A stretch of 32,000 nucleotides of DNA. Origin: Acholeplasma laidlawii PG-8A. GTDB taxonomy: Bacteria; Bacillota_I; Bacilli_A; Acholeplasmatales; Acholeplasmataceae. The DNA lies in contig NC_010163.1 in the NCBI RefSeq assembly GCF_000018785.1, positions 150,001-182,000 on the forward strand. Reading direction: 5' to 3'. Both the position numbers and the translations under genes were made by a program. The notes under the pieces are model-generated. The model searched no databases and was not told where the DNA came from. It worked only from the letters and a program-made list of their open reading frames with translations. Below, in pieces: positions 7,501 to 27,891 of this stretch; the first letter of the stretch is position 1, and every line of letters starts with the position of its first letter.

Positions 7501-8355
7501 CAATCTGTTCAATACTTCAGTAAGAAAAATGGTGATCAATTACCAACTGGTGTAAACGAACAAATTAGAGTTTATATTGCTAAAAAGCGTAAAATCACTG
7601 AAGGTGATAAGATGGCTGGGCGTCACGGTAACAAGGGTGTTATTTCTAAAATTTTACCAAGAGAAGATATGCCATATTTAGCAGATGGAACATATGTTGA
7701 CATCATGTTAAACCCATTAGGGGTTCCATCACGTATGAACATTGGACAAATCTTAGAAATTCACTTAGGAATTTCGGCTCAAAAATTAGGTATTAAAGTT
7801 GCATCCCCAGTATTCGATGGTGTGACTAACGATGAGTTAGGCGCAATCATGGAAGAAGCAGGTATTGCACCAGATGGTAAGACTACATTATATGATGGTC
7901 GTACCGGAGAACCTTATAACAACCGTATTTCGGTTGGTGTAATGTACATGATCAAACTATCGCATATGGTGGATGATAAACTACATGCTAGAAACGTTGG
8001 ACCTTATACATTAGTTACACAACAACCAATGGGTGGTAAAGCTCAAAACGGTGGACAACGTTTCGGGGAGATGGAAGTTTGGGCACTTTATGCTTATGGT
8101 GCTGCACATACACTTCAAGAAATGTTAACGATTAAATCAGATGATATGATTGGACGTAATAAAGTGTATTATGCAATTACACACGGCCAAGAAATACCAA
8201 AAGCAAGTATTCCTGAATCCTTTAGAGTATTAACAAGAGAACTTCAAGCCCTAGGCTTATATGTAGAACTCATTGATGCAAACAAGGGAGAGAATGAGGC
8301 GATCAAGTCTTTAGTAGACAACTCGTCCAAAGGTTTTAACAAAGGGAGGTTTTAA
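4540..8355 (+). CDS. rpoB: DNA-directed RNA polymerase subunit beta
   Basis: 1271 aa. Hallmark segments: [47 protein letters not shown]. Confidence 0.99.
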
Positions 8356-12742: not shown

Positions 12743-13018
12743 ATGATGTTCAAACAAGAACCCGGACGATTTTATATAAATGATGAATCGGGTAAAATGA
12801 TTGCAGAAATTACTTATAAATATATTGGTGAATATATTGCAGCAACACATACATTTGTTGATCCTGTATTAAGGGGACAAGGTATTGCACAAAAGTTAGT
12901 CGATGAAGTTGTAAGACTTTCAAGAAGTGAAGGGAAGAAAATAGATCCTGTTTGTCCATATGTAAAAAATCTATTCGAAAAGGATATGCAGTATAGTGAT
13001 GTGTATTTAAAACGTTAG
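12743..13018 (+). CDS. Small GNAT-fold N-acetyltransferase (Acetyltransf_CG / YjdJ-NATD1-like)
   Basis: 91 aa. GGAGGT RBS. THTFVDPVLRGQGIAQKLV...CPYV is the typical single-domain GNAT acetyl-CoA-binding pattern. Confidence 0.8.
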   Translation: MMFKQEPGRFYINDESGKMIAEITYKYIGEYIAATHTFVDPVLRGQGIAQKLVDEVVRLSRSEGKKIDPVCPYVKNLFEKDMQYSDVYLKR

Positions 13019-13028
13019 ATTATAGTTA

Positions 13029-13060
13029 TTGACAGTTTTAAATTTAAGGTATGTTAAAAT
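13029..13060 (+). promoter_or_regulatory. Candidate promoter for the GGDEF operon
   Basis: TTGACA (13029-13034) and an extended -10 TGtTAAAAT (13052-13060). The spacer is over-long at 20 nt, so the call is weak. Confidence 0.35.
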
Positions 13061-13103
13061 ATTTGTTGTGTGATAAATAATTACATAGATTAGGGAGAAA
13101 TCT

Positions 13104-14231
13104 ATGCAAACTGTAAATATAGCTTTATTTGTTTATTCATTTATCTTATTGATTTCTATATATTTATCAAGTGGACAAGTTAGGTATAAGTTAATGAGTG
13201 ATAGGCTTTTTAGGTCACTCATTAGAGTAACCCTGCTTCTTTTAATGGTTGATATGATAGCTAGGTTTGAGGGATTAGACTATTGGTTCTATCCTGTTTT
13301 TAGTCGTGTAGGTAATTTTGTATCCTATGGTATAAGTCACTTTATATCATCATTATGGTTCTTATATATTCATAATAGAATTTATACAGATACTGAACGA
13401 ACAAAAAACTTATACAAATACTTTTTCCTAATTAATTTGGTAAACTGGATTTTACTAATTATCACTCAGTTTACTGGATGGTATTATTATTTGGATAGTT
13501 CAAATATATATCACAGAGGACCATTATTTTTCTGGACACAATTAGTCAATGCTGTAATTTTACTTAGTTCACTTGTATTACTTGTATTAAAACGTAAACG
13601 TATTGAACAAAACACGATGTTTGCATATATTTTGTTTAGTTTAATTCCGGCGATTGGCTTAACTTTACAAATTATATTACCTGGAATTGCCTATATTCCA
13701 AATTCAGTGGCTGCTGCACTCATTATTCTATATTTATTCGTTCAAAACAATAAAGTAAGATATGATCACTTAACCGGCATATTTAATAGAAGGCACATGG
13801 ATTATTATTTAGAAGATAAACTAATAAGTGCAAAGCGCGGTAAACCATTTTCAGCTATTTTATTTGATTTAGATGATTTTAAAGATATCAATGATACATT
13901 AGGTCACTCTGTTGGTGATATTGCGATTAAAAAGACTGCGAAAATACTTGCCAGTGCAAGTAGTAAACATGAATTTTTAGCACGTTATGGTGGAGATGAG
14001 TTTTTGATCATAACAAGTAAGTATGAAAAACAAGATATTGATGAAATAGTAAAAAGGGTCTATGATGGTATTAATCAGTTTAATAAAATCAATGATAAAT
14101 TTAAACTAAGTATTAGTCATGGTTATTATGTATATCATAAGGATTTAAATTTAAGTCGAGATCAATTCATTGATGTTGTAGATAGAAATATGTATGATAA
14201 TAAAATAAAAAAGAAAAATTCTAGAGTATGA
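13104..14231 (+). CDS. Membrane-anchored diguanylate cyclase (multi-TM sensor domain + GGDEF domain)
   Basis: 375 aa. The N-terminal ~210 aa carry about 6-7 hydrophobic helices. The C-terminal part reads DHLTGIFNRR...LFDLDDFKDINDTLGHSVGD...RYGGDEFLII, an intact GGDEF active site. No RxxD I-site lies 5 residues upstream (SKHE instead). Confidence 0.9.
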   Translation: MQTVNIALFVYSFILLISIYLSSGQVRYKLMSDRLFRSLIRVTLLLLMVDMIARFEGLDYWFYPVFSRVGNFVSYGISHFISSLWFLYIHNRIYTDTERTKNLYKYFFLINLVNWILLIITQFTGWYYYLDSSNIYHRGPLFFWTQLVNAVILLSSLVLLVLKRKRIEQNTMFAYILFSLIPAIGLTLQIILPGIAYIPNSVAAALIILYLFVQNNKVRYDHLTGIFNRRHMDYYLEDKLISAKRGKPFSAILFDLDDFKDINDTLGHSVGDIAIKKTAKILASASSKHEFLARYGGDEFLIITSKYEKQDIDEIVKRVYDGINQFNKINDKFKLSISHGYYVYHKDLNLSRDQFIDVVDRNMYDNKIKKKNSRV

Positions 14232-14656
14232 TACAAAACACGATATTAAATCAATTAAATGAAAAAGGATTTGTAGTATCTAAAATAAGAGGGGTAAGTA
14301 TGTGGCCCTTCTTTAATCAAAAAAATACGCAAGTCTATATTAAGAGTGCTCTTAACTACAATAAAAATGACTGTATTCTTTTTTTAAGAGATGATGGTAG
14401 TTTAATTATGCACCGTATTCTTTACTTAAAAAAAGACTTCTTCTTAGTGTGTGGGGATAACCAGTCACAATTAGAAAAAGTGTATTGTAGTCAAATAAAA
14501 GGTAAAATGACTGAGTATTATATTAATGGACATACCAGACGTCCAATAGGTATAAAATATCACGTGTATGTAAGATGGATAAGAATTACTAGGCCGATAA
14601 GAGTTATAAGAGATCTATTAAAGCATATCATAAAAAAAATAATCAACAAAAAATAA
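14228..14656 (+). CDS. Soluble S24/S26-family (SipW-type signal-peptidase / LexA fold) serine peptidase-like protein
   Basis: 142 aa. The start overlaps the GGDEF stop (ATGA at 14228-14231). Motifs: RGVSMWP (nucleophile Ser box), LIMHRILY (His box as in S26B/SipW-type enzymes) and CGDNQ (GDN box). There is no N-terminal TM anchor. The C-terminal tail is very basic. Confidence 0.6.
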   Translation: MIQNTILNQLNEKGFVVSKIRGVSMWPFFNQKNTQVYIKSALNYNKNDCILFLRDDGSLIMHRILYLKKDFFLVCGDNQSQLEKVYCSQIKGKMTEYYINGHTRRPIGIKYHVYVRWIRITRPIRVIRDLLKHIIKKIINKK

Positions 14657-14675
14657 CTTACAAGGAGATATGTAA

Positions 14676-14999
14676 ATGTTTTATTATAAGCAAGCAAAAG
14701 TGAATATGATTACATATCTTGTTATTATTGTTTTTTTAAGTTTATTGGCTTTAATACCTTCTGAAGGTGATAATGAACTTATTATTTATCTATTAGGTGT
14801 TTATAGTTTTATTTGTGTATTTAATATGTTTTTGTATGTCCAAATCAAAAAACATATTAAAGGAAATCGTGTGATCCCAAGGTATATGAAAGTTGTAGTT
14901 CTTACATCACTTATCATAGTAGTTTTCTCACTTATATTTAATTTAGAAGCTGCAATTGATTTTTATAATGAAATCAAAGACAGCAAAAAAATACATTAA
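14676..14999 (+). CDS. Small 3-TM membrane protein, unknown function
   Basis: 107 aa. AAGGAG RBS 9 nt upstream. Three hydrophobic helices. No recognisable motif. Confidence 0.6.
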   Translation: MFYYKQAKVNMITYLVIIVFLSLLALIPSEGDNELIIYLLGVYSFICVFNMFLYVQIKKHIKGNRVIPRYMKVVVLTSLIIVVFSLIFNLEAAIDFYNEIKDSKKIH

Positions 15000-15014
15000 T
15001 GTTTAAAAAAACGT

Positions 15015-15044
15015 AGCCGGATAGTTTAAACTTATCCGGCTTTT
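15015..15044 (+). terminator. Rho-independent terminator
   Basis: AGCCGGATA / TATCCGGCT 9-bp stem with a 9-nt loop, followed by TTTT. An A-run lies upstream, so it may act bidirectionally. Confidence 0.75.
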
Positions 15045-15085
15045 ACTATGTAAATTTTATGAAAACGTATTCATTATAGTTTCAT

Positions 15086-15113
15086 TTGAATTAATTTTAA
15101 AATCATATAAAAT
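15086..15113 (+). promoter_or_regulatory. Candidate adhE promoter
   Basis: TTGAAT (15086-15091) - 16 nt - TAAAAT (15108-15113). Confidence 0.45.
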
Positions 15114-15155
15114 AGGGCTATAAAACCAATTCATATAACACAAGGAGAATTTAAT

Positions 15156-17744
15156 ATGGAAAAAGACACACTTATCTTAAACGAGGTAGATCTTTTAGTC
15201 ACGTCTGCTTTAGAAGCACTTGACGAATACATGGAGTTTACCCAAGAGAAGATTGATGAGATTGTAGCCAAAGTTTCTGTTGAAGCAATTGATGCACATG
15301 GCCGTTTAGCCAAGCTTGCTGTAGAGGAAACTAAACGAGGGGTATTTGAAGATAAAGCAACCAAGAATTTATTTTCAGTAGAATATGTCATCAATCATAT
15401 GAGACACCTAAAAACTGTAGGGATTATCTCGGAAAATACAGTAACGGGTATTACAGAGGTAGCTGATCCTGTTGGGGTAATTTGCGCTATTACACCAGTA
15501 ACGAATCCAACATCGACGACAATATTTAAGTCATTGATTGCACTTAAAACTAGAAATCCAATCGTCTTTGCGTTTCATCCAAATGCGCAAAATTCATCAA
15601 AGGAAGCGGCTAGAATTATTAAAGAAGCAGCGATTAAATCAGGTGCTCCAAAAAATTGTATTTCATGGATTGAACATCCAAGTTTAGATAATACAAATAA
15701 ACTTATGAACCACCCGGGGATTGCAACTATTTTAGCAACTGGTGGTAATGCAATGGTTAAGGCAGCTTACTCATGTGGTAAACCAGCTCTTGGTGTCGGT
15801 GCAGGTAACGTACCAGCATACATTGAAAAAACTGCAAACATTAAAACCGCAATCAATGATATTGTTATGTCTAAGTCATTTGATAATGGTATGGTATGTG
15901 CATCTGAACAAGCAGCTATTATTGATAAAGAAATCTATAAAGAAGCTTTGGCGGAATTTAAAAAGTTACATACTTTTTTATGTAACAAAGAACAAAAACA
16001 AATGCTGGAAACATTTATGTTCCCAGATGGTGTCAAGCTTAATCCTTATGTTGTAGGTAAGAGTGCACATCACATTGCAGAACTTGCAGGTTTCGAAGTT
16101 CCTTTAAATACCAACATTTTACTAGTAGAATGTAAAAGTGTTGGTAAAGAAGAACCACTTACAAGAGAAAAACTCTCGCCAGTATTAGCAATTCTTAAAT
16201 CAAATGATGAAGTACATGGTGTAGCACTTGCAAAAAGTATGGTAGAACTTGATGGTTTAGGACACTCTGCAGTGATTCACACACAAAATGATGAACTTAA
16301 AAAAACCTTTGGTTTAGCACTTAAAGCGATACGTATTATAGTGAATTCACCAGCGACTTTTGGTGGCATAGGTAATGTATATAACAGGTTTATACCATCA
16401 CTTACCTTAGGGTGTGGTTCTTATGGTAAAAACTCTGTTTCTGATAATGTCAGTGCCATCCACTTACTTAATATCAAACGTATCGGTGAAAGGAAAAATA
16501 ATATGCAATGGTTTAAGGTTCCATCTAAAATTTACTTTGAAAAAGATTCTATTGAATACTTAAGACAAATGAGAGATGTTAACAAGGTTGTCATCATCAC
16601 AGATAGAGTGATGGTTGACTTAGGTTATGTTAAAAAAGTAACTGATCAACTAAGTTTAAGACGTAATCATGTTGTATATCAACTATTTACCGATGTTGAA
16701 GCTGATCCATCCATTGAAACAGTTCATAAAGGTTATGAACTGATGAAATCCTTCCAACCAGATACGATTATAGCTATTGGTGGTGGTTCACCAATGGATG
16801 CTGCAAAAGCTATGTGGTTATTCTATGAAAACCCTGAAGTAGATTTTAACGACTTAAAACAAAAATTCATGGATATTAGAAAACGTGCATTTAGATATCC
16901 TGATTTAGGTAGAAAATCTAAATTAGTATGTATTCCAACAACCTCAGGTACTGGTAGTGAAGTGACTCCGTTTGCAGTTATCACTGATAATAAAGAGTCT
17001 AAAAAATATCCATTAGCAGATTATTCATTAACACCAACTGTAGCTATTATTGACCCTGCACTTACACTTACTCAACCAAAATCTGTTACAGCAGATACTG
17101 GAATGGACGTGTTAACACATGCAGTAGAAGCTTACGTTTCAGTACTTGCTAATGACTATACAGACTCACTTGCAATTCAAGCAGTTAAAATGGTATTTAA
17201 ATACTTAAAACGTGCATTTGATAATGGATTGGACTTTGAAGCAAGAGAAAAGATGCATAATGCATCTACCATGGCAGGTATGGCATTTGGTAATGCATTC
17301 TTGGGTATATCTCACTCTATGGCTCATAAAGTAGGTGGAAGATATCATATACCTCATGGTAGAATTAATGCAATCTTATTACCACATGTCGTTTTATATA
17401 ATGGTACAGTTCCAGCTAAGTTATCTACTTGGCCAAAATACACATATTATGTAGCAGATGAAAAATACATGGAACTAGCTAGAGCAATCGGATTAGATCC
17501 TAAATCTAAAGAAGAAGGCGTTAAGATGTTTGCTAAGGCATGTCATGATTTAGCAGTATCATTAGGTATTAATATGAGTTTTGCTAGTCAAAAAGTAGAA
17601 GAAAAAGATTTCTTAGAACACAGTGAAACTTTAGCTTATCTAGCTTATGAGGATCAATGTTCAACAGCTAACCCTAGACTACCTTTAGTAGCGGATATGA
17701 AGGTGATCCTAGAAAATGCATATTACGGCAAACTAGATATATAG
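15156..17744 (+). CDS. adhE: Bifunctional acetaldehyde-CoA / alcohol dehydrogenase
   Basis: 862 aa. The N-terminal aldehyde dehydrogenase half contains the catalytic region FDNGMVCASEQ. The C-terminal iron-type ADH half contains GGGSPMDAAK and HSMAHKVG...H. AAGGAG RBS. Confidence 0.97.
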   Translation: MEKDTLILNEVDLLVTSALEALDEYMEFTQEKIDEIVAKVSVEAIDAHGRLAKLAVEETKRGVFEDKATKNLFSVEYVINHMRHLKTVGIISENTVTGITEVADPVGVICAITPVTNPTSTTIFKSLIALKTRNPIVFAFHPNAQNSSKEAARIIKEAAIKSGAPKNCISWIEHPSLDNTNKLMNHPGIATILATGGNAMVKAAYSCGKPALGVGAGNVPAYIEKTANIKTAINDIVMSKSFDNGMVCASEQAAIIDKEIYKEALAEFKKLHTFLCNKEQKQMLETFMFPDGVKLNPYVVGKSAHHIAELAGFEVPLNTNILLVECKSVGKEEPLTREKLSPVLAILKSNDEVHGVALAKSMVELDGLGHSAVIHTQNDELKKTFGLALKAIRIIVNSPATFGGIGNVYNRFIPSLTLGCGSYGKNSVSDNVSAIHLLNIKRIGERKNNMQWFKVPSKIYFEKDSIEYLRQMRDVNKVVIITDRVMVDLGYVKKVTDQLSLRRNHVVYQLFTDVEADPSIETVHKGYELMKSFQPDTIIAIGGGSPMDAAKAMWLFYENPEVDFNDLKQKFMDIRKRAFRYPDLGRKSKLVCIPTTSGTGSEVTPFAVITDNKESKKYPLADYSLTPTVAIIDPALTLTQPKSVTADTGMDVLTHAVEAYVSVLANDYTDSLAIQAVKMVFKYLKRAFDNGLDFEAREKMHNASTMAGMAFGNAFLGISHSMAHKVGGRYHIPHGRINAILLPHVVLYNGTVPAKLSTWPKYTYYVADEKYMELARAIGLDPKSKEEGVKMFAKACHDLAVSLGINMSFASQKVEEKDFLEHSETLAYLAYEDQCSTANPRLPLVADMKVILENAYYGKLDI

Positions 17745-17766
17745 TATATATTCAAATAATTAAATC

Positions 17767-17836
17767 AAAGACTTTCAAATAACTTATAGGTTTTAGTAAA
17801 TCTTGTAAGACAAAAGTTATTTGAAAGTCTTTTTTT
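17767..17836 (+). terminator. Long-stem terminator after adhE
   Basis: 19-bp perfect inverted repeat AAAGACTTTCAAATAACTT (17767-17785) / AAGTTATTTGAAAGTCTTT (17814-17832), followed by a T-run. Confidence 0.8.
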
Positions 17837-17995
17837 ACTATTTAAACACAAAAAACGAAAATTATTTTCACCTAATGAAAATATATGCTAATCTATTGTA
17901 TAAAATGATATTAAATTGCTAAATGATATACGAAAGTAAATCGAGTGTAATATAATCATAGGTAAATATGGAAGCGTTTTTATAAGGGGGAAAAT

Positions 17996-18127
17996 ATGAT
18001 AAAAACGGTAGAAACAAAAAAGAGGGCATATGAGTGTCCTGTTATTGAAGTGGTCAAGTTTGAAGAAAATGTTCGAACTGGATCCGAGGGTTCAGCAAAC
18101 GTGAGTGACTGGTGGTTTGAGGTATAG
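17996..18127 (+). CDS. Unannotated 43-aa ORF (possible RiPP/lasso-like precursor or coupled upstream ORF)
   Basis: ATG at 17996 preceded by AAGGGGG (17984-17990). Translation: MIKTVETKKRAYECPVIEVVKFEENVRTGSEGSANVSDWWFEV. The TAG stop at 18125-18127 directly abuts the next gene's GTG/ATG. It is below the ORF-track size cutoff. Confidence 0.45.
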   Translation: MIKTVETKKRAYECPVIEVVKFEENVRTGSEGSANVSDWWFEV

Positions 18128-18130
18128 GTG

Positions 18131-20389
18131 ATGAAGAAACTTACAATTATTGTAACTTTCCTAGTAACTCTATTACTAGTAACACCTTTTGTATTTGCAA
18201 GTAGTGGTGCACCTACAATGATAGAGGGTGCATCTATTAGAACAAGTGGAGAACAAGGTTTGAGATTTTATGCAAATCTTGAAAATGAAGCTGTAACTAG
18301 TCAAGGATTTTATCTTGTATATGGTGAAACTTCAGTAGTGAATCTTCAAACTGCTATTTCTAATGCAGTTGAAGACAATGTCATGTTAAATGGCAAAAAG
18401 GTTTTCAAAGTAGAAGTTGAAAACAGAGAACCAAATGGTGATTTCAGTGTTGTTTTAACTGGTATACCTGAAGTTGGTTATTTAGATAAAATAACTGCAA
18501 TTGCTTATGGTGTTGTAGATAATGCAGAAATATTTGTAAGTGCTGGTACTACAAGATCCATTGGAGAAGTAGCTTATAATATGATTAAAGCAAATGATTA
18601 CAACCAAGTGGCACTGGATATACTTGAATCTATTGATATCAATCATAGAGCACTTGTAAGTACTCATTGGGAAACGTACGAAGAATCATCTGCAATCTTT
18701 GAGACAGATCCATTAATATTAAAGACTCAGTTCATTAATGATTGGAATGCCAAATTCGGTACAACTTTAACGGATTTAATAGGAACTGCTTTTCATACAA
18801 GTGCAATTGTTGGTAAAACAGACCAAGCAGCTCAAGGATCAATGACTAATTTGACTGGAATGAGAATCTATGCATTCTTCAAAGATGAATTATATAGTTT
18901 AAAATGGGGTTGGCTTCTAGACTATATTATAAAGTATGGAAGTGGAATTATTCACCCAGCAAGACAGGCTGTTGCGTTAAAGGGCGATGGAACAAATAAC
19001 AACCAAATACTCTATGATGCAAGCCATTTCAATTATTCTCTAGTTAATTTTTTTAATATGAGTAACCAAACTGGAGGTTATGAGCCTATTAATTTTACAC
19101 TTCCAGGCTCTAAAGCTAGATATCAGGATGTTGTAAATTTTAACAATACAATACCTAAAATGTTAAGTATTTATAATTTATCAAAAATTGGTGATAGTGT
19201 TGCACTACCGCAAGATTTATCAAAGGATGGATATACGTTTAATCAAAGTTTCACAGAAGGAACTAATGTACATACAATAAGTTATATTTTGACTGGTCAA
19301 GGAAAAGTGCTTGAACCTAATTTTACAATTGTTAACTACAATATTAGCTATTTAGATGGTGCTGAAGAAGTGTTACCAAATGATTTATATAATATTAATC
19401 AATCTTTAACTTTACCTACCTATGAGAAACCGGACCATATCTTTGAGGGCTGGTTTGATAATCCTTCATTTACAGGTTCACCTGTAACCAGTATTTCCAT
19501 GGGTACTACAGGAAATAAGGTGTTTTATGCAAAAACATCGCTACTAGATGATCCGGTTATTACAAGCTTAATTTCACAATTACCAACACATATTATGAAT
19601 GATTATGTCCTTCCTAATGCAGAAGGTGTTACATGGCAACTAAAAGCAGGACAGGACACTACTTTATACAATGTTGAAACAGGAAAATTACTCAGATTCC
19701 CTGGTGAATCAACACTACTAACTGTAGTCCTTAACAAAGGAAGTATTAGTCAAGATGTAGTATTAAGATTTGGTATAGCAGATCCGACAAAAACACAATA
19801 TTATTATAACGCTGATGCCAACTCAGTAGCGCAAACTGGTGGAACATTTACTACGCAACAAAACAAATCAGGATTCGGTGGGTATACAATAATAGTAGGT
19901 ACAAAACAATACTTTATTGGGTATAGATCCCATATCTCACTTTCTGGTACAACAGCAAATGAAATAATGACAATCTCTCAGCTAAGACCATATGGGTTAG
20001 GAGGAGCAAATAATTATAATTTAGGATTGCTCACAGGAGGTATACCTGCAACTAATTCAAGAGGTTATGGGGTATTGTATGAAAATACAGGCAATGTACC
20101 GGTTCAATTTGATTTGAGAGAAACATATGGAAGAGCAGATTCTGGTTATGCGGGTTATGGTAAATTTATATTAAAGCCTGAAGGAAATGGACAATATAAA
20201 GTTAGTGCTCTATTACCAAACCATACTGGAGGACTGATGGTAACCTTAAACCAGGGCGAACTATTATGGGCACCCCACACTTGGGAAGTAGCTGGAACTT
20301 ATTTATATCAACCAGGCGCAACAAAAGGGGTACTATTAGTAAACTCTATAATCAAAATTGAGACATTTAAAATGGATTTCACAGACTAG
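18131..20389 (+). CDS. Exported multidomain protein: shared EGASIR module + Listeria-Bacteroides-type repeat + Ig-like domain + unknown C-terminal domain
   Basis: The ORF track starts at GTG 18128. The ATG at 18131 has GAGGT 7 nt upstream. Signal peptide MKKLTIIVTFLVTLLLVTPFVFA|SS. Residues ~31-400 are paralogous to the C-termini of the two GHL10 genes. DHIFEGWFDNPSFTGSPVTSISMGTTGNKVFYAKT fits the Listeria-Bacteroides (Flg_new) repeat. LPNAEGVTWQLKAG...LTVVLNKGSISQDVVLRF fits a small bacterial Ig-like domain. The last ~200 aa are Gly/Tyr-rich and unassigned. Confidence 0.85.
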   Translation: MKKLTIIVTFLVTLLLVTPFVFASSGAPTMIEGASIRTSGEQGLRFYANLENEAVTSQGFYLVYGETSVVNLQTAISNAVEDNVMLNGKKVFKVEVENREPNGDFSVVLTGIPEVGYLDKITAIAYGVVDNAEIFVSAGTTRSIGEVAYNMIKANDYNQVALDILESIDINHRALVSTHWETYEESSAIFETDPLILKTQFINDWNAKFGTTLTDLIGTAFHTSAIVGKTDQAAQGSMTNLTGMRIYAFFKDELYSLKWGWLLDYIIKYGSGIIHPARQAVALKGDGTNNNQILYDASHFNYSLVNFFNMSNQTGGYEPINFTLPGSKARYQDVVNFNNTIPKMLSIYNLSKIGDSVALPQDLSKDGYTFNQSFTEGTNVHTISYILTGQGKVLEPNFTIVNYNISYLDGAEEVLPNDLYNINQSLTLPTYEKPDHIFEGWFDNPSFTGSPVTSISMGTTGNKVFYAKTSLLDDPVITSLISQLPTHIMNDYVLPNAEGVTWQLKAGQDTTLYNVETGKLLRFPGESTLLTVVLNKGSISQDVVLRFGIADPTKTQYYYNADANSVAQTGGTFTTQQNKSGFGGYTIIVGTKQYFIGYRSHISLSGTTANEIMTISQLRPYGLGGANNYNLGLLTGGIPATNSRGYGVLYENTGNVPVQFDLRETYGRADSGYAGYGKFILKPEGNGQYKVSALLPNHTGGLMVTLNQGELLWAPHTWEVAGTYLYQPGATKGVLLVNSIIKIETFKMDFTD
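18218..19327 (+). repeat. Copy 1 of the ~365-aa paralogous protein module (N-terminal position)
   Basis: MIEGASIRTSGEQGLRFYAN...FYLVYGET...KKVFKVEV...VVLTGIP...FETDP..FINDWN...LKWGWLLDYI...ARQAVALKGDGT...VVNFNN aligns block by block with copies 2 and 3. Similarity is at protein level; the DNA has diverged. Confidence 0.8.
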
Positions 20390-20397
20390 AAAAAATT

Positions 20398-20426
20398 AAT
20401 AAGGCGCTATTTAATAGCGCCTTATT
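20398..20426 (+). terminator. Hairpin (weak terminator) after the 752-aa gene
   Basis: AATAAGGCGC / GCGCCTTATT stem, extendable to 14 bp. The downstream T-run is poor (CTTATC), so read-through into the next gene is plausible. Confidence 0.5.
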
Positions 20427-20443
20427 CTTATCAGAAAGGTACT

Positions 20444-21151
20444 ATGAACACATATAAAATAGCAGATCTAATCATCAAAATGAATCCTAAACACGATCCA
20501 CTATTAAGTCAAGCTAAAGCTTACTTAATAAATACGAGAGAATTAGTCGATTTTGTAATCCCTGATTTAACAAAGGATGTTTTAGCATATCATAATGATA
20601 ATCAAGATTTAACAATCGGAGACTGTGAATACATTATGTATGCTTCTTATTTTTATACTAAGCTGATAGAATATAATGGTATATACTTACATGCGTCAGC
20701 TGTAGTTAAAGATGGTTTTTGTTATATGTTCTCTGCACCAAGTGGTACAGGAAAATCAACACATACTAATCTATGGCTTAAGAATATAAAAGATTCACTT
20801 ATTTTAAATGATGATAAACCCGCAATTAGAATATTTGACGATACTATTTATGCTTATGGTACTCCATTTTCTGGCAAACATGATTTAAGTATCAACCAAA
20901 AATACCCTTTAAAGGGTATATCATTTATATATAGAGATTCTAAAAATACCATCACTAAAATCAATCCAAATGAGTCATTATCTTTAATGATGGCACAAAC
21001 AGTTAGATCTAAACAAGAAAAATATTTAGTTAAAACACTATCTATGCTAGAAACTATCTTAACTAAAACACCAATATATAAAATGGGTTGTACAATATCC
21101 AAAGAAGCCGCATTAATGTCGTATAACACTATGAAAGGGCAGACACTATGA
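20444..21151 (+). CDS. HPr kinase C-terminal-domain-like P-loop protein (HprK-related kinase, substrate unknown)
   Basis: 235 aa with no signal peptide. LHASAVVKDGFCYMFSAPSGTGKSTHTNLW...ILNDDKPAIRI...YGTPFSGK follows the H-[GA]-x-x-V...G-x-S-G-x-GKS...DD pattern of the HprK C-terminal domain. There is no HprK N-terminal domain. Its stop overlaps the next gene's start (ATGA at 21148-21151). Confidence 0.6.
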   Translation: MNTYKIADLIIKMNPKHDPLLSQAKAYLINTRELVDFVIPDLTKDVLAYHNDNQDLTIGDCEYIMYASYFYTKLIEYNGIYLHASAVVKDGFCYMFSAPSGTGKSTHTNLWLKNIKDSLILNDDKPAIRIFDDTIYAYGTPFSGKHDLSINQKYPLKGISFIYRDSKNTITKINPNESLSLMMAQTVRSKQEKYLVKTLSMLETILTKTPIYKMGCTISKEAALMSYNTMKGQTL

Positions 21152-23868
21152 AGATCAAAAAAACAATAATTATCATACTAGTATGTTTAACCACTATACT
21201 ATTATCAGGATTTACAAAGCCAAATTCAAATGATATAAAATCATTTGAATTTGAGTTTGAAACCAATCAAAAATTAAGAGCAGTCTGGGTTACACCAATT
21301 GTAGGAGAAGTCTCTACATTTACAACTGAAACTGCCTTTAAAAATGAAATGAATCAGATGTTAGATATCTTAGAACATTACAAAATAAATGCACTTATCT
21401 TTCATGTTAGAACACATAACAATGCTTTATATGATTCAGAATTAAATCCTAAAGCAACCGTTTTTGGTAGTGTTAATTTTAATAATTTTGACCCTTTATT
21501 ATGGCTAGTTAATGAAACTCAAAGCCGTGGTATTGAGTTTCATGCATGGCTAAATCCTTATAGAGTGGGAACTAATTATGTAGGCACAATGCCTGCAGAA
21601 AACCCCGCATCAAATGCTAGTAACATATTAAGTAATCCATCGAATTCGGCACTTAAGATATTAAACCCTGGAGAACCTGTTGTACGTGATTTTATAGTTG
21701 ATACTGTAATAGAAATTATTGAAAAGTACCCTGTAGATGCAATCCATTTTGATGATTACTTTTACACTAATTTAGGGGCTAACGGAGCACTTTCTGGTGC
21801 AACCACCATTCTAGATGAACCCGATCAGCAAACATATGTAACTTATGGTAGTGGATTTAATACAACGAGTGCTACTGATAAAGCAAATTGGCGTAGACAC
21901 CAAGTTAATACCATGGTTCAGGCCGTATCTAATGCGATAAAAAATTATAACCAGTTAAATGGTAAGCATATACAATTTGGTATATCACCTACGGGGATAT
22001 ACAAAAATGGGAATGGTGTAGTAACTTATGATGAGTTTGGTAAACCAGTTACAACAGGATCTCTTACTACTGGTCAAACACATTATAGTTCTTATCTATT
22101 TTCAGACTCGCTTCACTGGATAAAAGAAGGCTGGTTAGATTATATTGCCCCACAAAGCTATTGGGCAACAAATCACAGTGCAGCATCCTACTATAATGTA
22201 ATGGGCTGGTGGGAAAAAGTAGTTAAATATTTGGACGTTAATCTCTATTCTGGTATTGGTCTATATATGGCAGATGAATCGACAAATACCTTTAACTGGA
22301 AAGATGATATGTTAGAGATGCGTACTCAATTAGAATATTTAGAGACACTTAATGATGTAGATGGATTAAGTGTATACTCATATAAATATATTAGAAATCA
22401 CTATAACAATCAAAATTCTACTTCAGCAAATCAAATGGAAAATGCAGCTCACTTATGGCAAGATTATTTAGTTTTACCACCACTTAAAAGTATGGAACCC
22501 ATACTTTTAGATGGTGTATCTAATATCTTGCATGAAAATGGGGTATTAACCTTTGATAGACTGGATGGTGCCAAACAGTATTACATATATAGATCACAAA
22601 CTAGCCTAACATATAGCCAATCTGAAATTGTAGGTGTTGTTGGTAGAAGTAATGATTTAAGTTTATCTTATAATACAGGCGATATCCAAAATCAATATGT
22701 ATATGGGATTCGAGCACTATCCTATACAAATCATTTAGGTAGTACCACAGTAACTAATGATATTTCAATGATTGAGGGGGCATCGATTAGGCTTGCTACC
22801 GAATCAAGTGGACAAGGCTTAAGATTTTATGCAAATAAACCTCAATCTGTTTTAAGTGATACACATGGATTTTATATTGTTTATGGTGAGACCACAAGGC
22901 AAGATTTATTAGATGCAATAAACAATCCTATAAATAATGAAATTATAGTAAATCAAAAGAAGGTATTTAAAGTTGAAGTGCCTGATGTTGAAGTAGATGG
23001 AACGTATTCGGTAGTAATTACTGGTATACCAAGTATAGGATATACTCAAAAGATAAGTGTATATGCTTATTACACAAATAATCAACAAACCTATATATCT
23101 TCTAATGCCTCTATAAGATCACTACTTGAAGTAGCGGTTCGAATGGAAAATCTAGATCAGGGTGTTACTCAGAGCAAAGATATTATTAATGAGGTTAAAG
23201 ACTCAACAAAGCATATCGTAAGAAATGCTTTTAATGCATATGAAATTACTGGTATTTTTGAAACGAACCACAATCTAATAAAAGCAGAATTTATTAAAGA
23301 TTGGAACACTTTATTTCAAACTAACTGGACAGAACTAAATGCACAAGACTTTTATAACCATGCAATTGTAGGTAAACTATCTGGTGCTGAAACGCTTGCT
23401 GGTAGTAGATTATATCAGTTCTTTAATCACACAAATTATCAATTAAAATGGGCATGGTTATTAGATTATCTACTAAGTATTGATGGTACTGTTTGGACTT
23501 CAAGACAAATAGAAGCTATTAAACTAGATGGTACATTTGAGTCATACACTAATTTATATAGTGGTAATCATCTGATTTATTCTATCTATAATTTCTTTTA
23601 TGAATCACATGTGGTAGGTGGATATACTGCAATTAATTTCGTTACTAATAAGCAATTTTATGATACAGTAGTTAATTTTAGTAATAGTATCTATTTAAAA
23701 CTAGATAACTATGATTTCTTAAGTGTAGGTCAATCAATTAAACTTCCTAATCCACCGGCTGATTTATCAGCAAACTTTTCACATTACCTGATTGGGTCCA
23801 CAACATATTATCCAGGGGATAACTATGTTGTTACAAGTAATACAAAAATTAAATTTATGTATCAGTAA
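21148..23868 (+). CDS. Exported GHL10 (glycosyl-hydrolase-like family 10, YngK/DUF187-type) protein with C-terminal EGASIR module
   Basis: 906 aa. Signal peptide ending ILLSGF. The TIM-barrel-like region has LRAVWVT, LIFHVRTHNNALYDSEL, FDPLLWLVNETQSRGIEFHAWLNPYR, DAIHFDDYFY, FGISPTGIYKNG and YIAPQSYW, the pattern I associate with GHL10. It is followed by a beta-sandwich (QYYIYRSQ...YVYGIRALS) and then module copy 2. Confidence 0.8.
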   Translation: MKIKKTIIIILVCLTTILLSGFTKPNSNDIKSFEFEFETNQKLRAVWVTPIVGEVSTFTTETAFKNEMNQMLDILEHYKINALIFHVRTHNNALYDSELNPKATVFGSVNFNNFDPLLWLVNETQSRGIEFHAWLNPYRVGTNYVGTMPAENPASNASNILSNPSNSALKILNPGEPVVRDFIVDTVIEIIEKYPVDAIHFDDYFYTNLGANGALSGATTILDEPDQQTYVTYGSGFNTTSATDKANWRRHQVNTMVQAVSNAIKNYNQLNGKHIQFGISPTGIYKNGNGVVTYDEFGKPVTTGSLTTGQTHYSSYLFSDSLHWIKEGWLDYIAPQSYWATNHSAASYYNVMGWWEKVVKYLDVNLYSGIGLYMADESTNTFNWKDDMLEMRTQLEYLETLNDVDGLSVYSYKYIRNHYNNQNSTSANQMENAAHLWQDYLVLPPLKSMEPILLDGVSNILHENGVLTFDRLDGAKQYYIYRSQTSLTYSQSEIVGVVGRSNDLSLSYNTGDIQNQYVYGIRALSYTNHLGSTTVTNDISMIEGASIRLATESSGQGLRFYANKPQSVLSDTHGFYIVYGETTRQDLLDAINNPINNEIIVNQKKVFKVEVPDVEVDGTYSVVITGIPSIGYTQKISVYAYYTNNQQTYISSNASIRSLLEVAVRMENLDQGVTQSKDIINEVKDSTKHIVRNAFNAYEITGIFETNHNLIKAEFIKDWNTLFQTNWTELNAQDFYNHAIVGKLSGAETLAGSRLYQFFNHTNYQLKWAWLLDYLLSIDGTVWTSRQIEAIKLDGTFESYTNLYSGNHLIYSIYNFFYESHVVGGYTAINFVTNKQFYDTVVNFSNSIYLKLDNYDFLSVGQSIKLPNPPADLSANFSHYLIGSTTYYPGDNYVVTSNTKIKFMYQ
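22768..23865 (+). repeat. Copy 2 of the ~365-aa paralogous module (C-terminal position)
   Basis: MIEGASIRLATESSGQGLRFYAN...FYIVYGET...KKVFKVEV...VVITGIP...FETNH..FIKDWN...LKWAWLLDYL...SRQIEAIKLDGT...VVNFSN. Confidence 0.8.
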
Positions 23869-23876
23869 AATCACCG

Positions 23877-23915
23877 AAGGTATAGATGTAAAAAATAATA
23901 CATTTATACCTTTTT
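23877..23915 (+). terminator. Rho-independent terminator
   Basis: AAGGTATAGATG / CATTTATACCTT stem of 12 bp with one G-U and a 12-nt loop, followed by T5. Confidence 0.65.
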
Positions 23916-24000
23916 CTAGTGATATGAAATTAGAAACTTTGAATTGTAAGTGATTTATTATAAAATAGTGTGTAAAAGCAAAACAACAAAGGAGTACACG

Positions 24001-25191
24001 ATGAAAAAAATATATACCCTATTCATATTGATATCAATACTACTTTTAAGTGGTTGTATCATATCAAATGATGATGAACCAAAAAGCTATGAAGTAGGTC
24101 TTGATGTACTATATGAACTAAATGATGAAGTCAGAGGTTTAGATATCATTGTTGATTTAACCATGGAATTTGATGTGAGTGAAGTGACTGACTTTTATGT
24201 CACACTATCATACATGGTAAATGCAACAACAGAAGATTTAGATTATAAGTTGCAATTACCAAGTGCTACAAAGGTAAACTTTTTTGAAGTCACTGGTAAT
24301 CAAGCAGTTCAAACCTTAGAAGAAGTTATATTTGATTATAAAGGTGATTATATAAGTGCATATGTAACTGTACAGTTTAAAAAAGGTATAACGAATCATG
24401 TATATGAACTAAAAAGTATAAAGTCAACGAACCTTTATGAACTTGCATTAGTATCAGAGGGTACATTTGCAACTGAAATTTTAGAATCATATGAACCAAG
24501 TGCTGAGTTTCCTGAACTAGAAATTAGTTTAACTGCTTCATTAAACAATGAATTTAGAGGTTTTGATTTAGCATCAGTTCTAACCTCTAATGAGACCTTA
24601 GAGAGTTTAGAAGTGACTTACGGGTTTATTTACATACTTAATGATGATGAAGCAATCTATTTAAACACACCCGAGGTTACAAATATTACCAAGGAAGAAG
24701 TTATAACACTTGATTTATTAACGAACTTTGATACAAATATTAAGAATACTACGTTAGATTATGAGCTAGATAGAGTTTATGCGAGATCTTTTGTTACTGT
24801 AACTAAATCAGATGAATCATATACATACTATTCAGAAATCATTAATTTTACGCTATATGAATTAGCACTAGAATCTACCGGTGCATTTGCTGAAGAAATC
24901 ATTACTGAAGTAGAATATCAAGAACCAGATCAAACAGTATTAACAATTGTAAGTATTAACGCAAATACTACAAACTATACAATTACTCTAGTAAGTGATC
25001 ATGCAACTGCAACCATCTCAACAGATTACTTAAAAGTCACAGTTGTAGTTACATTAGATACTGGGTATAGTTTTTCTAATAACCTTATCTTTAAGTTTAA
25101 TAATAAAGTAGTTAGTGTATCAAATTATACAATAGTTAATAACAAATTAACTTATATATTTAATGATCCGAACTGGTCAGGTATCTACTAA
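24001..25191 (+). CDS. Lipoprotein with internal tandem duplication, unknown function
   Basis: The start was moved from 23950 to the ATG at 24001 (AAAGGAG RBS at 23988-23994). MKKIYTLFILISILLLSGC has a canonical lipobox L-S-G-C. Two segments of about 150 aa repeat: ...YVTVQFKKGITNHVYELKSIKSTNLYELALVSEGTFATEIL versus ...FVTVTKSDESYTYYSEIINFTLYELALESTGAFAEEII. The TAA stop overlaps the next ATG (TAATG at 25189-25193). Confidence 0.85.
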   Translation: MKKIYTLFILISILLLSGCIISNDDEPKSYEVGLDVLYELNDEVRGLDIIVDLTMEFDVSEVTDFYVTLSYMVNATTEDLDYKLQLPSATKVNFFEVTGNQAVQTLEEVIFDYKGDYISAYVTVQFKKGITNHVYELKSIKSTNLYELALVSEGTFATEILESYEPSAEFPELEISLTASLNNEFRGFDLASVLTSNETLESLEVTYGFIYILNDDEAIYLNTPEVTNITKEEVITLDLLTNFDTNIKNTTLDYELDRVYARSFVTVTKSDESYTYYSEIINFTLYELALESTGAFAEEIITEVEYQEPDQTVLTIVSINANTTNYTITLVSDHATATISTDYLKVTVVVTLDTGYSFSNNLIFKFNNKVVSVSNYTIVNNKLTYIFNDPNWSGIY

Positions 25192-27891
25192 TGAAAATAA
25201 TTAATATAAAAAAAATAGTAGGTGTACTTGTTATGCTATCTTTAACATTCATGGTATTTGCATCAGCTCCAAAACTTGCTGCAAATACGCCGGTTACCCC
25301 AAATAATACAAAACAAGAGTTTCGTGCAGCATGGGCATCACACCTAATTGGTAGTATGCCTGCATACACGTCAGAATCACAGTTTAAAGCACGTGCAACA
25401 GAAATCCTTGATATACTTGAGTACTATAACTTTAACGCCATTATTATGCACTTACGTACGCATAATAATGCATACTATGTATCTGAGTTAAGTCCTAAGG
25501 CTGCAGCGTTTGCAAATGTGAATTTCAATACCTTTGATCCAATGCTTTGGTTTATAGAAGAAACACATAAGCGTGGTATGGAATTTCACGGATGGTTAAA
25601 CCCATACCGATTAGGTACAAACTATGTAGGCACAATGCCGGCAGAAAACCCTGCAAGTAACCCAGCAAACATTTTAAGTTATAATGGTGCTTCCATCTTA
25701 AACCCTGGTTTACCACATGTAAGGGATTTTGTATCTGACACGATTGTAGAAATATTGGAAAGATATCCGGTAGACGCGATTCATTTTGATGATTATTTCT
25801 ACATCAATTTAGGTGCTAACGGATCAACTAGTGGTTCAAATAATATCTTAAATGAACCAGATCAACAAACATTTGTAACTTATGGCAGTGGATATAATAC
25901 AAGTAGTGCACCTTCCAAAGCAGACTGGCGAAGACATCAAGTAAATCTCATGGTTGAGTCTGTTTCAAACACCATTAAAAACTTTAATCAAGCAAACAAT
26001 ACCCATGTTCAATTTGGTATATCACCAACCGGTATCTATAAAAATGGTAATGGTGTTGTTACGTATGATGGAAATATACCTATAACTTCAGGATCTGATA
26101 CGGGTGGTCAAACACACTATTCAAGTTATTTATTTGCAGACTCAGTTAAATGGGCAACAGAAGGTTGGATAGACTATCTACTTCCCCAAAGTTATTGGGC
26201 AAACTCACATCCTATCGCAAGTTATAACAAAATTATGACTTGGTGGAATGATGTCTTTAAGTATTTAGATGTTAATCTTTATTCTGGTATTGGTATTTAT
26301 ATGGCAGATGGTACGGGTAATACCTACGGCTGGCAAACCAATAACAATGAAATGAAAAATCAATTAGAATTCATTAAAGGCTTGGAAAATGTTCAAGGAT
26401 CTAGTGTCTATAGTTATAACTTTGTAGATAGCGCATATAAAGGTAGTAGCGCAAAATCAGCCACTCAAATGCAAAATGCTAAAAGTACCTGGGGTGATAT
26501 TGCAGTCTTACCTGAGTTAAAGAGTATGGCTCAAATTATGCCCGGTAAAGTTACTAATTTAAAACATGTAAATGGTACCTTATCCTTTAATAAAGCAGTA
26601 GATGCTAAACAATATTATGTGTACCGTTCAAAAACTGCATTAAACTTTACGAATGCCGAAATTGTTGAAGTCATTCGTTCGAGTGATAACATAATAAATT
26701 ACCAGACAGGTGATTTAAATAATGAATATACCTATGCAGTACGCGCATTGTCATACTCTAATACATTAGGTGATGCAGTAACGATATTAAATCCGGCAAA
26801 TGATACAAGATTAAATGTTGTTGAAGGTGCATCGATTCGAACTGCACCAAATGAAACGAATCAATCACTTAGATTCTATGCTCAGTTTGACGATGTACTT
26901 GGTCAAACTGAACAAGGATTTTATATGTAGAAGGTGATGTATCGTTAGCTGAATAAAATCACGAGTCAACGTAGAAACAACCATTCAGTTTTCCATAAAT
27001 GGACAAAGTGTTGTTAAAGTACCTGTAAACGACGTAGATAATACGGGTAAATTTACAACGGTGATTAAAGATATAACGCCTGCTGATTTCAGTAAACTCT
27101 ATACAGTTTTCGGATACTATAAAAAAGGTGGTGTCATTACACTATCTAATAATAAAACAACAAGATCTGTATTAGAAGTGGCGTATAAGATGACCTATGC
27201 AGATCAGGCAACACCACGAATTGAAACGTATACCAATCAATTAAAACTATTTGGTGAAGACGCTTTTGGTCAACTAAGAGTTACAGATAAATATGAGACG
27301 AACCATATAGAACTAGCTAAGGCATTCTTAAAAGACTGGAATACCAAATTTGGTTTAAGTTTAACTCAAATTGATTTAGAATCATTTTATAGTAGTGCAG
27401 TCTATGGTAAGGTAGCTAGTAATAATAGTCTAAGTGGTAGTAGAATTTACGAGTTCTTTAAAGATCAAACTCTTAACTTAAAATGGGGCTGGCTACTAGA
27501 TTATATTGAGTCGGTGGATTCAAAAATTTGGCCATCTAGACAAATTGTAGCACTCAAAGGAAATGGTACAAATCCAGAGTACTCAAATATCTATGAAGGT
27601 AGACACTTTATTACCTCGCTAATTGGATTCTTCAATGGTACACATGCATATGATGGGTTTCCAACAAATGATTTTACAGATGTTACTATGTATGACAATC
27701 TAGCTGATTTTGTCGACAGCATACTGGCAAAACCAACAGCATACCAATACGTATATATAGGTGATGAAGTTAAATTACCTATTCAAAGTAACTCAAATTT
27801 TAGTCACTATCTCATGAATGGTCAAATATATCATGAAGGTGATACACTAATCATTGGAGATAATCTCGTTATTAAACTCGTATTTGATTAA
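25191..27891 (+). pseudogene. Second GHL10 + EGASIR-module paralog, disrupted by two single-nucleotide deletions
   Basis: Frame 0 (25191-26930, 579 aa) is co-linear with the 906-aa paralog up to ...EGASIRTAPNETNQSLRFYAQ...GFYM*. Homology continues in the -1 frame for 9 codons (VEGDVSLAE, 26927-26953). It then continues in the next -1 frame from 26953 (..KSRVNVETTIQFSINGQSVVKVPV...) through the ORF-track 27061-27891 piece to the stop. Signal peptide MLSLTFMVFASAPKLAA. Confidence 0.8.
26816..27888 (+). repeat. Copy 3 of the ~365-aa paralogous module (frameshifted)
   Basis: VVEGASIRTAPNETNQSLRFYAQ...GFY(I)VEGD...SVVKVPV...YETNH..FLKDWN...LKWGWLLDYI...SRQIVALKGNGT. Confidence 0.75.

Follow-up and report, generated by a model that had tools for sequence, protein, structure and literature searches.

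A conserved peptide gene in Acholeplasma laidlawii as the putative substrate of a non-lasso maturation system linked to an HPr-kinase-fold enzyme

What is the product of a 43-codon open reading frame (ORF) that heads an operon of large surface proteins in a wall-less bacterium? The ORF, at 17996-18127 on the plus strand, lies in a 32,000-nucleotide stretch of the Acholeplasma laidlawii PG-8A genome (NC_010163.1, positions 150,001 to 182,000; hereafter the window), and an initial annotation made from the letters alone proposed that it might be the precursor of a lasso peptide. Our data point elsewhere. The ORF is a genuine, conserved gene, it belongs to a peptide family with thousands of members, and we judge – with a probability of roughly 0.6 – that its product is the substrate peptide of a maturation system, both widespread and undescribed, of a type other than lasso. 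A precursor for a different and undescribed route was the fallback that the initial annotation itself offered, and it is the reading that best fits the evidence.

The signals that surround the ORF are readily seen. Translation would begin at the ATG at 17996 and end at the TAG at 18125-18127, giving MIKTVETKKRAYECPVIEVVKFEENVRTGSEGSANVSDWWFEV; a ribosome-binding site (AAGGGGG, 17984-17990, plus strand) stands 5 nt 5′ of the start codon and the next gene abuts the stop, all just as first described. That next gene starts at a GTG (18128) or, according to other assemblies, at an ATG (18131) that yields a protein of 752 amino acids, and its own ribosome-binding site (GAGGT) sits within the last codons of the small ORF. 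Since the preceding gene, adhE, ends in a strong intrinsic terminator (17767-17839, plus strand: a 19-bp stem and then a U-run, with a predicted fold of -25.3 kcal/mol, z = -6.3, equalled by none of 200 shuffled sequences), the small ORF heads a new transcription unit. A candidate -10 box, TATAAT (17951-17956), together with a conserved 5′ element, GAAGCGTTTTTAT, occupies 17951-17983 of the plus strand. The non-coding element TATAAT ... GAARCGTTTTTAT can be aligned among A. laidlawii, a metagenomic relative (L102, ~455-490) and A. equifetale (L099, ~7730-7765), and a similar element occurs ~100 nt upstream of the peptide gene in A. equirhinis (L016, ~5690-5715). It is probably a promoter plus a 5′ untranslated region or operator; a promoter consensus scan made no call at the candidate -10 box, and no Rfam family matches 17951-17983.

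Evidence that the frame is a genuine gene came from comparison among species. Conservation within A. laidlawii is little informative, and other species were reached by way of the HPr-kinase-like protein encoded downstream. Orthologs of 38-42 amino acids occupy the same slot in A. equirhinis (MENLIKRCYETPSIEITEFDEKVHANSTSVPVDSWFAD), in A. equifetale (MKDKAEKKIYESPKIEVTQFDEKVHTNSASANVDVASWWN) and in L102 (MLKTEKDLKGQYTSPEIVVFQFEEEIQTGSEGSANVSEWWFE), where, as in the window, the peptide gene is followed by genes for a Flg_new protein, an ScmC-like protein (fused in some species to an S26-like domain) and a GHL10 protein. Frame, start, stop, position and ribosome-binding site – the last as GGGGGA or GGGAGGA – are kept in all four. 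Pairwise codon comparison gave 15-23 differences at third positions against 8-14 at each of the first and second, with 6-12 codons per pair changed synonymously, which is the coding-type divergence that the initial annotation had proposed to look for. Its doubt that so short a frame might be a product of chance in AT-rich intergenic DNA drew on the length of 43 codons and could draw also on the lack of any Pfam or NCBIfam match to the peptide; that possibility is refuted by the comparative data, along with a family profile whose E-values reach 1e-14 against 1.8 billion proteins, and we give it next to no weight. Nor is the gene everywhere unannotated, as was thought: an exact or 95%-identical 43-residue product is reported as "hypothetical protein" by gene callers in more than 20 A. 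laidlawii contigs and in many assemblies of the species.

The peptide family is remarkable for the sharpness of the boundary between what is conserved and what is not. A profile built from 20 peptides recovered 243 clusters from a word-indexed database, and an exhaustive search of 1.84 billion cluster representatives (clusters at 50% identity) returned 5,719 at E <= 1e-3, all of 33-72 amino acids, all unnamed or "hypothetical protein", and none with a Pfam domain. They share the leader pattern KK.Y..PEIEI..F..EDIIT.S, after which comes a hypervariable acidic tail. Numbered from the invariant Pro (position 0, 100%), the conserved residues are Tyr at -3 (99%), Glu at +1 (87%), Phe at +7 (97%), Asp at +11 (96%), Thr at +14 (96%) and Ser at +16 (98%); conservation is extreme through this Ser and then vanishes completely. 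The Acholeplasma peptides, whose recognition segment reads K-R-x-Y-x-x-P-x-I-E-V-x-x-F-E-E-x-V-x-T-x-S, fit the profile with a one-residue deletion between the Phe and T-x-S. In the window peptide the leader, KKRAYECPVIEVVKFEENVRTGS, accordingly takes up approximately residues 1-30, to the point where conservation ends at T-x-S, and the variable acidic tail is EGSANVSDWWFEV.

Several elements that the initial annotation had picked out thus turn out to be properties of the family. The YxxP motif is one, Y12 and P15 being invariant throughout; the Thr ahead of the proposed junction (Thr28) is another, though A. equirhinis has Ala in its place. Depending on the predicted cleavage site this Thr, two residues before the invariant Ser, stands at -2 or -3. 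The aromatic residues near the C-terminus are a third: 75% of cores carry an aromatic within their last five residues, against ~31% expected from composition, and the WWFEV of the window peptide conforms. Family cores otherwise span 11-58 residues, with an abundance of Gly, Ser, Asp, Thr and Asn and a mean net charge of -3.4; Cys occurs in only 13 of 253. A conserved leader joined to a hypervariable core is the typical architecture of processed peptides. Together with the linkage, set out below, to a recognition domain, a modifying enzyme, a protease and an exporter, it gives the family the general features of precursors of peptides that are made by ribosomes and modified after translation (RiPPs), the modification itself being predicted.

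The nature of the enzyme encoded downstream is central to what that modification might be. The gene at 20444-21151 (plus strand) encodes a P-loop protein of 235 amino acids with the Walker A motif SAPSGTGKSTH, of the ScmC family and of the fold shared by HPr kinase and phosphoenolpyruvate carboxykinase (PEPCK), and we predict it to be a peptide-modifying enzyme. ScmC is the sole NCBIfam model that it matches (E = 1.3e-9), and the match, at 37.9 bits, falls below the curated cutoff of 125. The Pfam family PF27840 is also found on homologs; precomputed matches to it are unmarked in most A. laidlawii records and weak or faint in some relatives. On these scores the protein is best regarded as a family-level relative of ScmC and not as an equivalog. 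Some 4,800 ScmC-like relatives at ~50% identity occur in Acholeplasma and in gut and rumen Clostridia, with the P-loop SAPSGTGKSTH and an LNDDKPA motif invariant among homologs. An AlphaFold2 model of high confidence (predicted local distance difference test, pLDDT, 93.6) found its best Foldseek matches in HPr kinase/phosphorylase (HprK/P) and ATP-dependent PEPCK (~E = 2e-6). The protein therefore has an HprK/P-like fold with a P-loop, as do the lasso kinases of the PadeK/ThcoK type: "HPr-kinase-like", the label first given to it, is correct at the level of the modelled fold, from which kinase activity would follow by analogy.

In A. equifetale, A. equirhinis and one metagenomic relative (P0053, P0081 and P0097) the ScmC-like protein carries an extra C-terminal domain, and to this domain a separate 142-residue protein of the window (14228-14656, plus strand) is homologous (E = 2e-24). 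Fusion of the genes in sister species links the two proteins as parts of one functional system. The motifs G-x-S-M-x-P, H-R and G-D-N-Q are 98-100% conserved in 47 homologs and are kept in the window copy (residues S24, H62 and D77); we take them to be the Ser, His and Asp boxes of signal peptidases of the SipW/Sec11 type (S26B), and predict that the protein is a leader peptidase. Sub-threshold matches to models of SipW and of archaeal signal peptidase I are consistent with this assignment, as are the best fold matches, SEC11C/A, LexA and SipA. No N-terminal hydrophobic segment or membrane anchor is visible in the sequence of the 142-residue protein, which is accordingly predicted to be cytoplasmic or peripheral. 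Its start is overlapped by 4 nt (ATGA) by a gene for a GGDEF diguanylate cyclase (13104-14231), and this overlap suggests that the two are co-translated. The cassette of A. equirhinis likewise has GGDEF genes close by (L016, 12470-13552 and 14408-15994), and a link between cyclic di-GMP and the cassette is possible.

The organisation of these genes in other bacteria shows what company the peptide keeps. Through the ScmC alignment 80 metagenome loci were fetched, many on short contigs, and dereplicated to 55 lineages. In 47 of the 80 loci ScmC is closely followed by an S26-like gene, and a recurrent gap of ~270 bp between the two encodes an 88-residue PqqD protein (Pfam E = 1e-17) that matches ScmD weakly and has the lasso B1 chaperones as its closest NCBIfam models. 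This PqqD protein is present in 56 of the 80 loci, an ABC exporter of the MsbA/bacteriocin type in ~37, and a nucleotidyltransferase of the NTP_transf_5 family in 18; in a clustering census of neighbours across the 55 lineages, the recurrent partners were of four types only: the S26-like and PqqD proteins, the ABC exporter, large surface proteins and NTP_transf_5. The initial annotation had noted that the leader fits the motif bound by PqqD-like RiPP recognition elements (RREs), and genes for just such domains accompany the cassette, binding being our prediction. Immediately upstream of ScmC, in many unrelated lineages, are small ORFs whose layout is that of the Acholeplasma peptide, such as MKKYISPEIQIIEFDIEDVLTNS…, MVKYEKPELEIIEFELVDVLTIS…GDWY and MKKKYIRPEIEITSFTTEDIITAS…GTWN; a family peptide is encoded within ~3 kb of ScmC, always on the same strand, in 17 of the 55 lineages. 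A look-up that began from a peptide (P0207) led to ScmC, PqqD, an S24-like gene, an ABC exporter and NTP_transf_5, the whole bounded by housekeeping genes. The pairing of the ORF with an HPr-kinase-like gene, to which the initial annotation pointed, is thus real and widespread across the lineages examined, and the linkage of peptide and cassette is frequent, not obligatory.

From these observations we infer the following route. The leader would be recognised by the PqqD RRE in gut Clostridia and, because no PqqD gene is nearby, directly in Acholeplasma. The ScmC-family enzyme (20444-21151) would then modify the peptide at the expense of ATP, most likely, by analogy with known HPr-kinase-fold enzymes, through phosphorylation of Ser or Thr; as the window peptide ends in Val, the target residue, if any, must differ from a C-terminal Ser. 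Finally, the S26B-like protease (14228-14656) would cut the leader away at T-x-S, the invariant junction, which fits the preference of signal peptidases for small residues at -3 and -1. The product would be a Trp-rich acidic peptide of ~13 residues, EGSANVSDWWFEV. Computed masses are 4989.468 Da for the 43-residue precursor and 1524.652 Da for the tail (1604.618 Da if phosphorylated); an alternative, longer product, SEGSANVSDWWFEV, would weigh 1611.684 Da (1691.650 Da if phosphorylated). Through ancestry or through modules the system is related to the accessory genes of lasso clusters in Bacillota – the RRE, the HPr-kinase-fold enzyme, NTP_transf_5 and the ABC exporter – and differs from those clusters in having an anchorless signal-peptidase homolog in place of B2 and no cyclase. 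Acholeplasma carries a reduced version of the cassette, set within an operon of Flg_new and GHL10 surface proteins; because the peptide gene heads that operon, its product may serve that surface machinery as a signal or effector.

A number of points weigh against this account. The support is entirely computational, with the chemistry assigned by fold analogy alone: the ScmC scores lie below the curated NCBIfam cutoff, kinase activity is read from the fold, and the peptidase was modelled with no more than moderate confidence (pLDDT 73), with weak fold matches (E = 1.5e-3). In A. laidlawii the peptidase gene shares an operon with the GGDEF gene, 3.3 kb upstream and separate from the one that holds the peptide gene. 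No PqqD gene or ABC exporter of the cassette type was found within +/-10 kb in the Acholeplasma loci (window, L016, L099 and L102), which leaves recognition and export unexplained in this genus. The metagenome loci, moreover, were picked through ScmC, so that the co-occurrence counts are biased; a recognisable peptide is nearby in only the 17 lineages given above, and in ~10 well-flanked lineages (L017, for example) the ScmC gene is an orphan. Within 8 kb of a second peptide taken as the starting point (P0142, L103), no gene of the cassette was found.

The genes next to those of family peptides very often encode large proteins, secreted or on the surface, that come from unrelated families. In the window (18131-20389) and in L042 (182-3019) the neighbour is a Flg_new protein; elsewhere it is a Big_2 protein (L093, 5718-8159), a 2,752-residue protein resembling M26 IgA proteases (L035, 249-8507), a flagellin-domain protein of 1,708 residues (L103, 8346-13472) or another large secreted or surface protein (L105, 6287-7984), and some such neighbours are without a Pfam domain. 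Two further arrangements deserve mention. At L072 (6637-14688) and in ~12 near-identical loci (the L061 group), representing a lineage very common in the human gut, genes for a response regulator and a histidine kinase are followed by ScmC, PqqD, the S26-like gene, the ABC exporter and a protein resembling Wzz/tyrosine kinases; no recognisable family peptide is encoded within 10 kb, and the substrate is either divergent or encoded elsewhere. In L014/L015, from an Acholeplasma sp. metagenome, an ScmC-like gene lies amid giant GHL10 and Flg_new proteins of 1,500-2,900 residues and beside an AbiEii toxin-like gene, and there no peptide or S26-like gene was found within +/-8 kb.

The case for a lasso peptide merits a full hearing, given how much of the locus resembles one. 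On this view the precursor would be cut after Thr28-Gly29, a 9-membered macrolactam ring would form between Ser30 and Asp38, with WWF as the steric lock, and the kinase would decorate the product, for which a cyclase and a B2 protease would have to be encoded elsewhere in the genome. The YxxP leader and the Thr two residues before the invariant Ser do match the rules for lasso precursors, among them that of a conserved Thr at -2 (PMC10368454); counted from that Ser, an acidic residue stands at core position 9, 9, 7 and 7 in the four Acholeplasma-lineage orthologs; and PqqD (closest to lasso B1), the HPr-kinase-like protein, NTP_transf_5 and the ABC exporter make up the set found in lasso clusters of Bacillota (PMC7533575). 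In those clusters HPr kinases phosphorylate the precursor and PsmN, of the NTP_transf_5 type, modifies it further (PMC7533575, citing Zhu 2016 and Zyubko 2019). Other findings count against it. As the initial annotation observed, no cyclase, B2, RRE or cassette-type exporter is encoded in the window, and none emerged from our scan of its 32 kb. An Asn-synthetase-like cyclase is also absent from the +/-8-10 kb around the four Acholeplasma-lineage loci, and a transglutaminase-like B2 leader peptidase was found neither in the related loci nor in the 55 lineages, scans that did not cover the whole genome; no family of either kind recurs within 6-8 kb in those lineages, complete cassettes bounded by housekeeping genes included. 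On the RRE the evidence is divided, a B1-like PqqD being present in 56 of 80 metagenome loci and absent from the four Acholeplasma-lineage loci. What the cassette offers as its protease is an S26B-like serine peptidase, which sister species encode in one chain with the kinase-like protein. The window core does have Ser1 and Asp9, the spacing on which the macrolactam was first argued, but of 253 family members 43% have an Asp or Glu within positions 7-9, no more than chance, since shuffled cores give 44%; the cores are moreover Gly- and Ser-rich and of very variable length (11 to 58). Known lasso-cluster kinases phosphorylate a C-terminal Ser of the precursor (PMC7533575). The Val that ends the window peptide was rightly counted against such a target, and in the family a terminal Ser is seen in only 5 of 253 peptides. 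The literature searched holds no report of lasso clusters in Acholeplasma. We therefore regard a lasso peptide, which as the 14-mer less water would have a computed mass of 1593.674 Da, as highly improbable.

Two other readings do without maturation of the peptide. The small ORF might be a translationally coupled upstream frame that controls translation or mRNA stability of the 752-residue gene, the peptide being incidental. Throughout the Acholeplasma lineage such a frame stands ahead of the Flg_new protein gene, and the distance from its stop to the downstream ATG is just 3 nt in A. laidlawii and L102 (15-18 nt in A. equirhinis and A. equifetale), with the downstream GAGGT inside the ORF; these features make coupling plausible as an additional property. 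What coupling cannot explain is the conservation of the leader: it is the amino-acid sequence, in a family of thousands, and not the mere presence of an ORF that is kept, and in most lineages what follows is the ScmC gene or nothing comparable, with no large gene to be coupled. As a full explanation we think it a poor prospect. Alternatively, the small protein could be a partner – a chaperone, an adaptor for secretion or anchoring, a regulator – of large surface proteins that are themselves the targets of the ScmC- and S26-like enzymes. The adjacency of family peptides to Flg_new (window, L042), Big_2 (L093), M26-like (L035), flagellin-domain (L103) and, in Acholeplasma, GHL10 proteins speaks for such a role, and some signal-peptidase homologs, SipW and SipA, are known to be devoted to particular secreted proteins, SipA being also among our fold matches. 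Yet these large neighbours have no domain in common and none contains the leader motif; the S26-like proteins have no membrane anchor; and a PqqD RRE and an ABC exporter within the cassette point to a small peptide as the substrate, and a conserved leader with a hypervariable tail is typical of processed peptides. A partner role seems to us unlikely.

It remains to place the substrate peptide and its proposed maturation system among systems already described. The kinase-containing lasso clusters of Bacillota (paeninodin and pseudomycoidin, with genes A, C, B1, B2, K, N and D) are alike in their short YxxP precursor with a Thr near the junction, in a PqqD-type RRE near lasso B1, and in the HPr-kinase fold, NTP_transf_5 and ABC exporter; they too occur in Clostridia, sometimes beside two-component systems (PMC7533575). 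They are unlike the present system in that the latter has no cyclase or B2 in its neighbourhoods, an S26B-like serine peptidase as its predicted protease, no positional ring-closing acid and rarely a C-terminal Ser, while its kinase-like protein is of the ScmC family and matches no recognised lasso kinase model; in Acholeplasma, RRE and exporter are also lacking nearby. The SynChlorMet (SCM) cassette, comprising ScmC (TIGR04249/PF27840), the PqqD homolog ScmD and two radical SAM/SPASM enzymes, is likewise a presumed peptide-maturation cassette, and the 235-residue protein and its relatives match ScmC models just as the accompanying PqqD weakly matches ScmD. The scores here, however, are 38-40 bits against an equivalog cutoff of 125, radical SAM/SPASM genes are absent from the cassettes in the 55-lineage census, and a precursor family and an S26-like peptidase can be identified. 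Bacillus subtilis SipW, Streptococcus pyogenes SipA and eukaryotic SEC11 share with the 142-residue protein the G-x-S-M-x-P, H-R and G-D-N motifs, the fold matches and the predicted cleavage after small residues at -3 and -1. They differ from it in that the window protein has no N-terminal transmembrane anchor, proteins of its type are fused or adjacent to a P-loop enzyme of the kinase fold, and the presumed substrate has no hydrophobic signal sequence.

The system belongs to none of these three, each of which has defining features that it lacks. No description of the peptide family or the cassette was found in the full-text literature searched, which does not extend to subscription journals. 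We class it as a putative RRE-associated ribosomal-peptide pathway with an unprecedented set of enzymes, without cyclase and without radical SAM, a combination that no established RiPP class has. A bolder proposal, which we hold tentatively and at somewhat less than even odds, takes as a single claim that peptide, ScmC-type enzyme, PqqD RRE and anchorless S26B peptidase together form a ribosomal peptide pathway of a new class, one that gut Clostridia have in abundance and wall-less Acholeplasma has kept in a reduced form; that the defining modification would be installed by the kinase-fold enzyme and not by a cyclase or radical SAM enzyme, with the signal-peptidase homolog serving as a cytoplasmic leader peptidase; and that the species-specific, Trp-ended acidic peptides so released would serve as signals or effectors, coupled to the genes for surface proteins in the neighbourhood.

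The wider window has features of its own. The genes rpoC and rpsL normally sit close together. Here rplKAJL-rpoBC is parted from rpsL-rpsG-fusA by an inserted block of ~15 kb (12743-27891) that comprises, in order, genes for a GNAT acetyltransferase and the GGDEF protein, the 142-residue gene, a gene for a 107-residue membrane protein, adhE, the small ORF, and genes for the 752-residue Flg_new protein, the 235-residue HPr-kinase-like protein, a 906-residue GHL10 protein, a lipoprotein and a second GHL10 protein. In A. equifetale and A. equirhinis the module of peptide, ScmC and GHL10 has wholly different genomic surroundings, and so it is mobile on evolutionary timescales. The exported 752-residue protein (18131-20389, plus strand) bears a Listeria-Bacteroides repeat (Pfam Flg_new, E = 5.8e-10; alternative start GTG 18128), and its N-terminal ~340 residues are paralogous to the C-terminus of the GHL10 protein (41% identity, E = 5e-61). 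The latter, an exported glycosyl-hydrolase-like protein (21148-23868, plus strand; Pfam GHL10, E = 2e-47), is encoded downstream of the ScmC-like gene, a conserved partnership confined to the Acholeplasma lineage. Between the 752-residue and ScmC-like genes stands a GC-rich, perfect 13-bp hairpin (20398-20426, plus strand; predicted fold -17.6 kcal/mol, z = -4.0) with no U-tract on the coding strand, which a terminator scan saw on the minus strand only; it may be an element of mRNA stability or partial termination and so fix how much peptide and exported-protein message there is relative to enzyme message. Two single-T deletions, near 26925 and 26953, split the second GHL10 gene (25191-26930 and 27061-27891). 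In LS483439.1 it is intact, at 900 residues, and the rest of the ~18.9 kb compared is identical; the split is either a strain-specific pseudogene or a sequencing error. In A. laidlawii strain 8195 a DDE transposase (DUF772/DDE_Tnp_1; L001, 3283-4782) lies between rpoC and the GNAT gene, and in this strain and in L010/L011 the exported protein is shorter, at 674-677 residues against 752. A ribosomal protein L10 leader (Rfam RF00557, 69 bits; 2688-2820) precedes rplJ, as expected.

If our interpretation of the locus is correct, then a single ORF in a mollicute would point to a peptide family of 5,719 representatives, whose precursors match no Pfam or NCBIfam model, and to an enzyme cassette, common among Clostridia of the human gut and the rumen, with ~4,800 ScmC-like homologs; the cassette may also include a new type of leader peptidase. 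That rules thought to mark lasso leaders – YxxP, a Thr near the junction, a neighbouring kinase – are common to a family that is not lasso is a caution for automated lasso mining. The Acholeplasma version, being the minimal form of the system – peptide, kinase-like protein and peptidase – offers a convenient experimental entry point.

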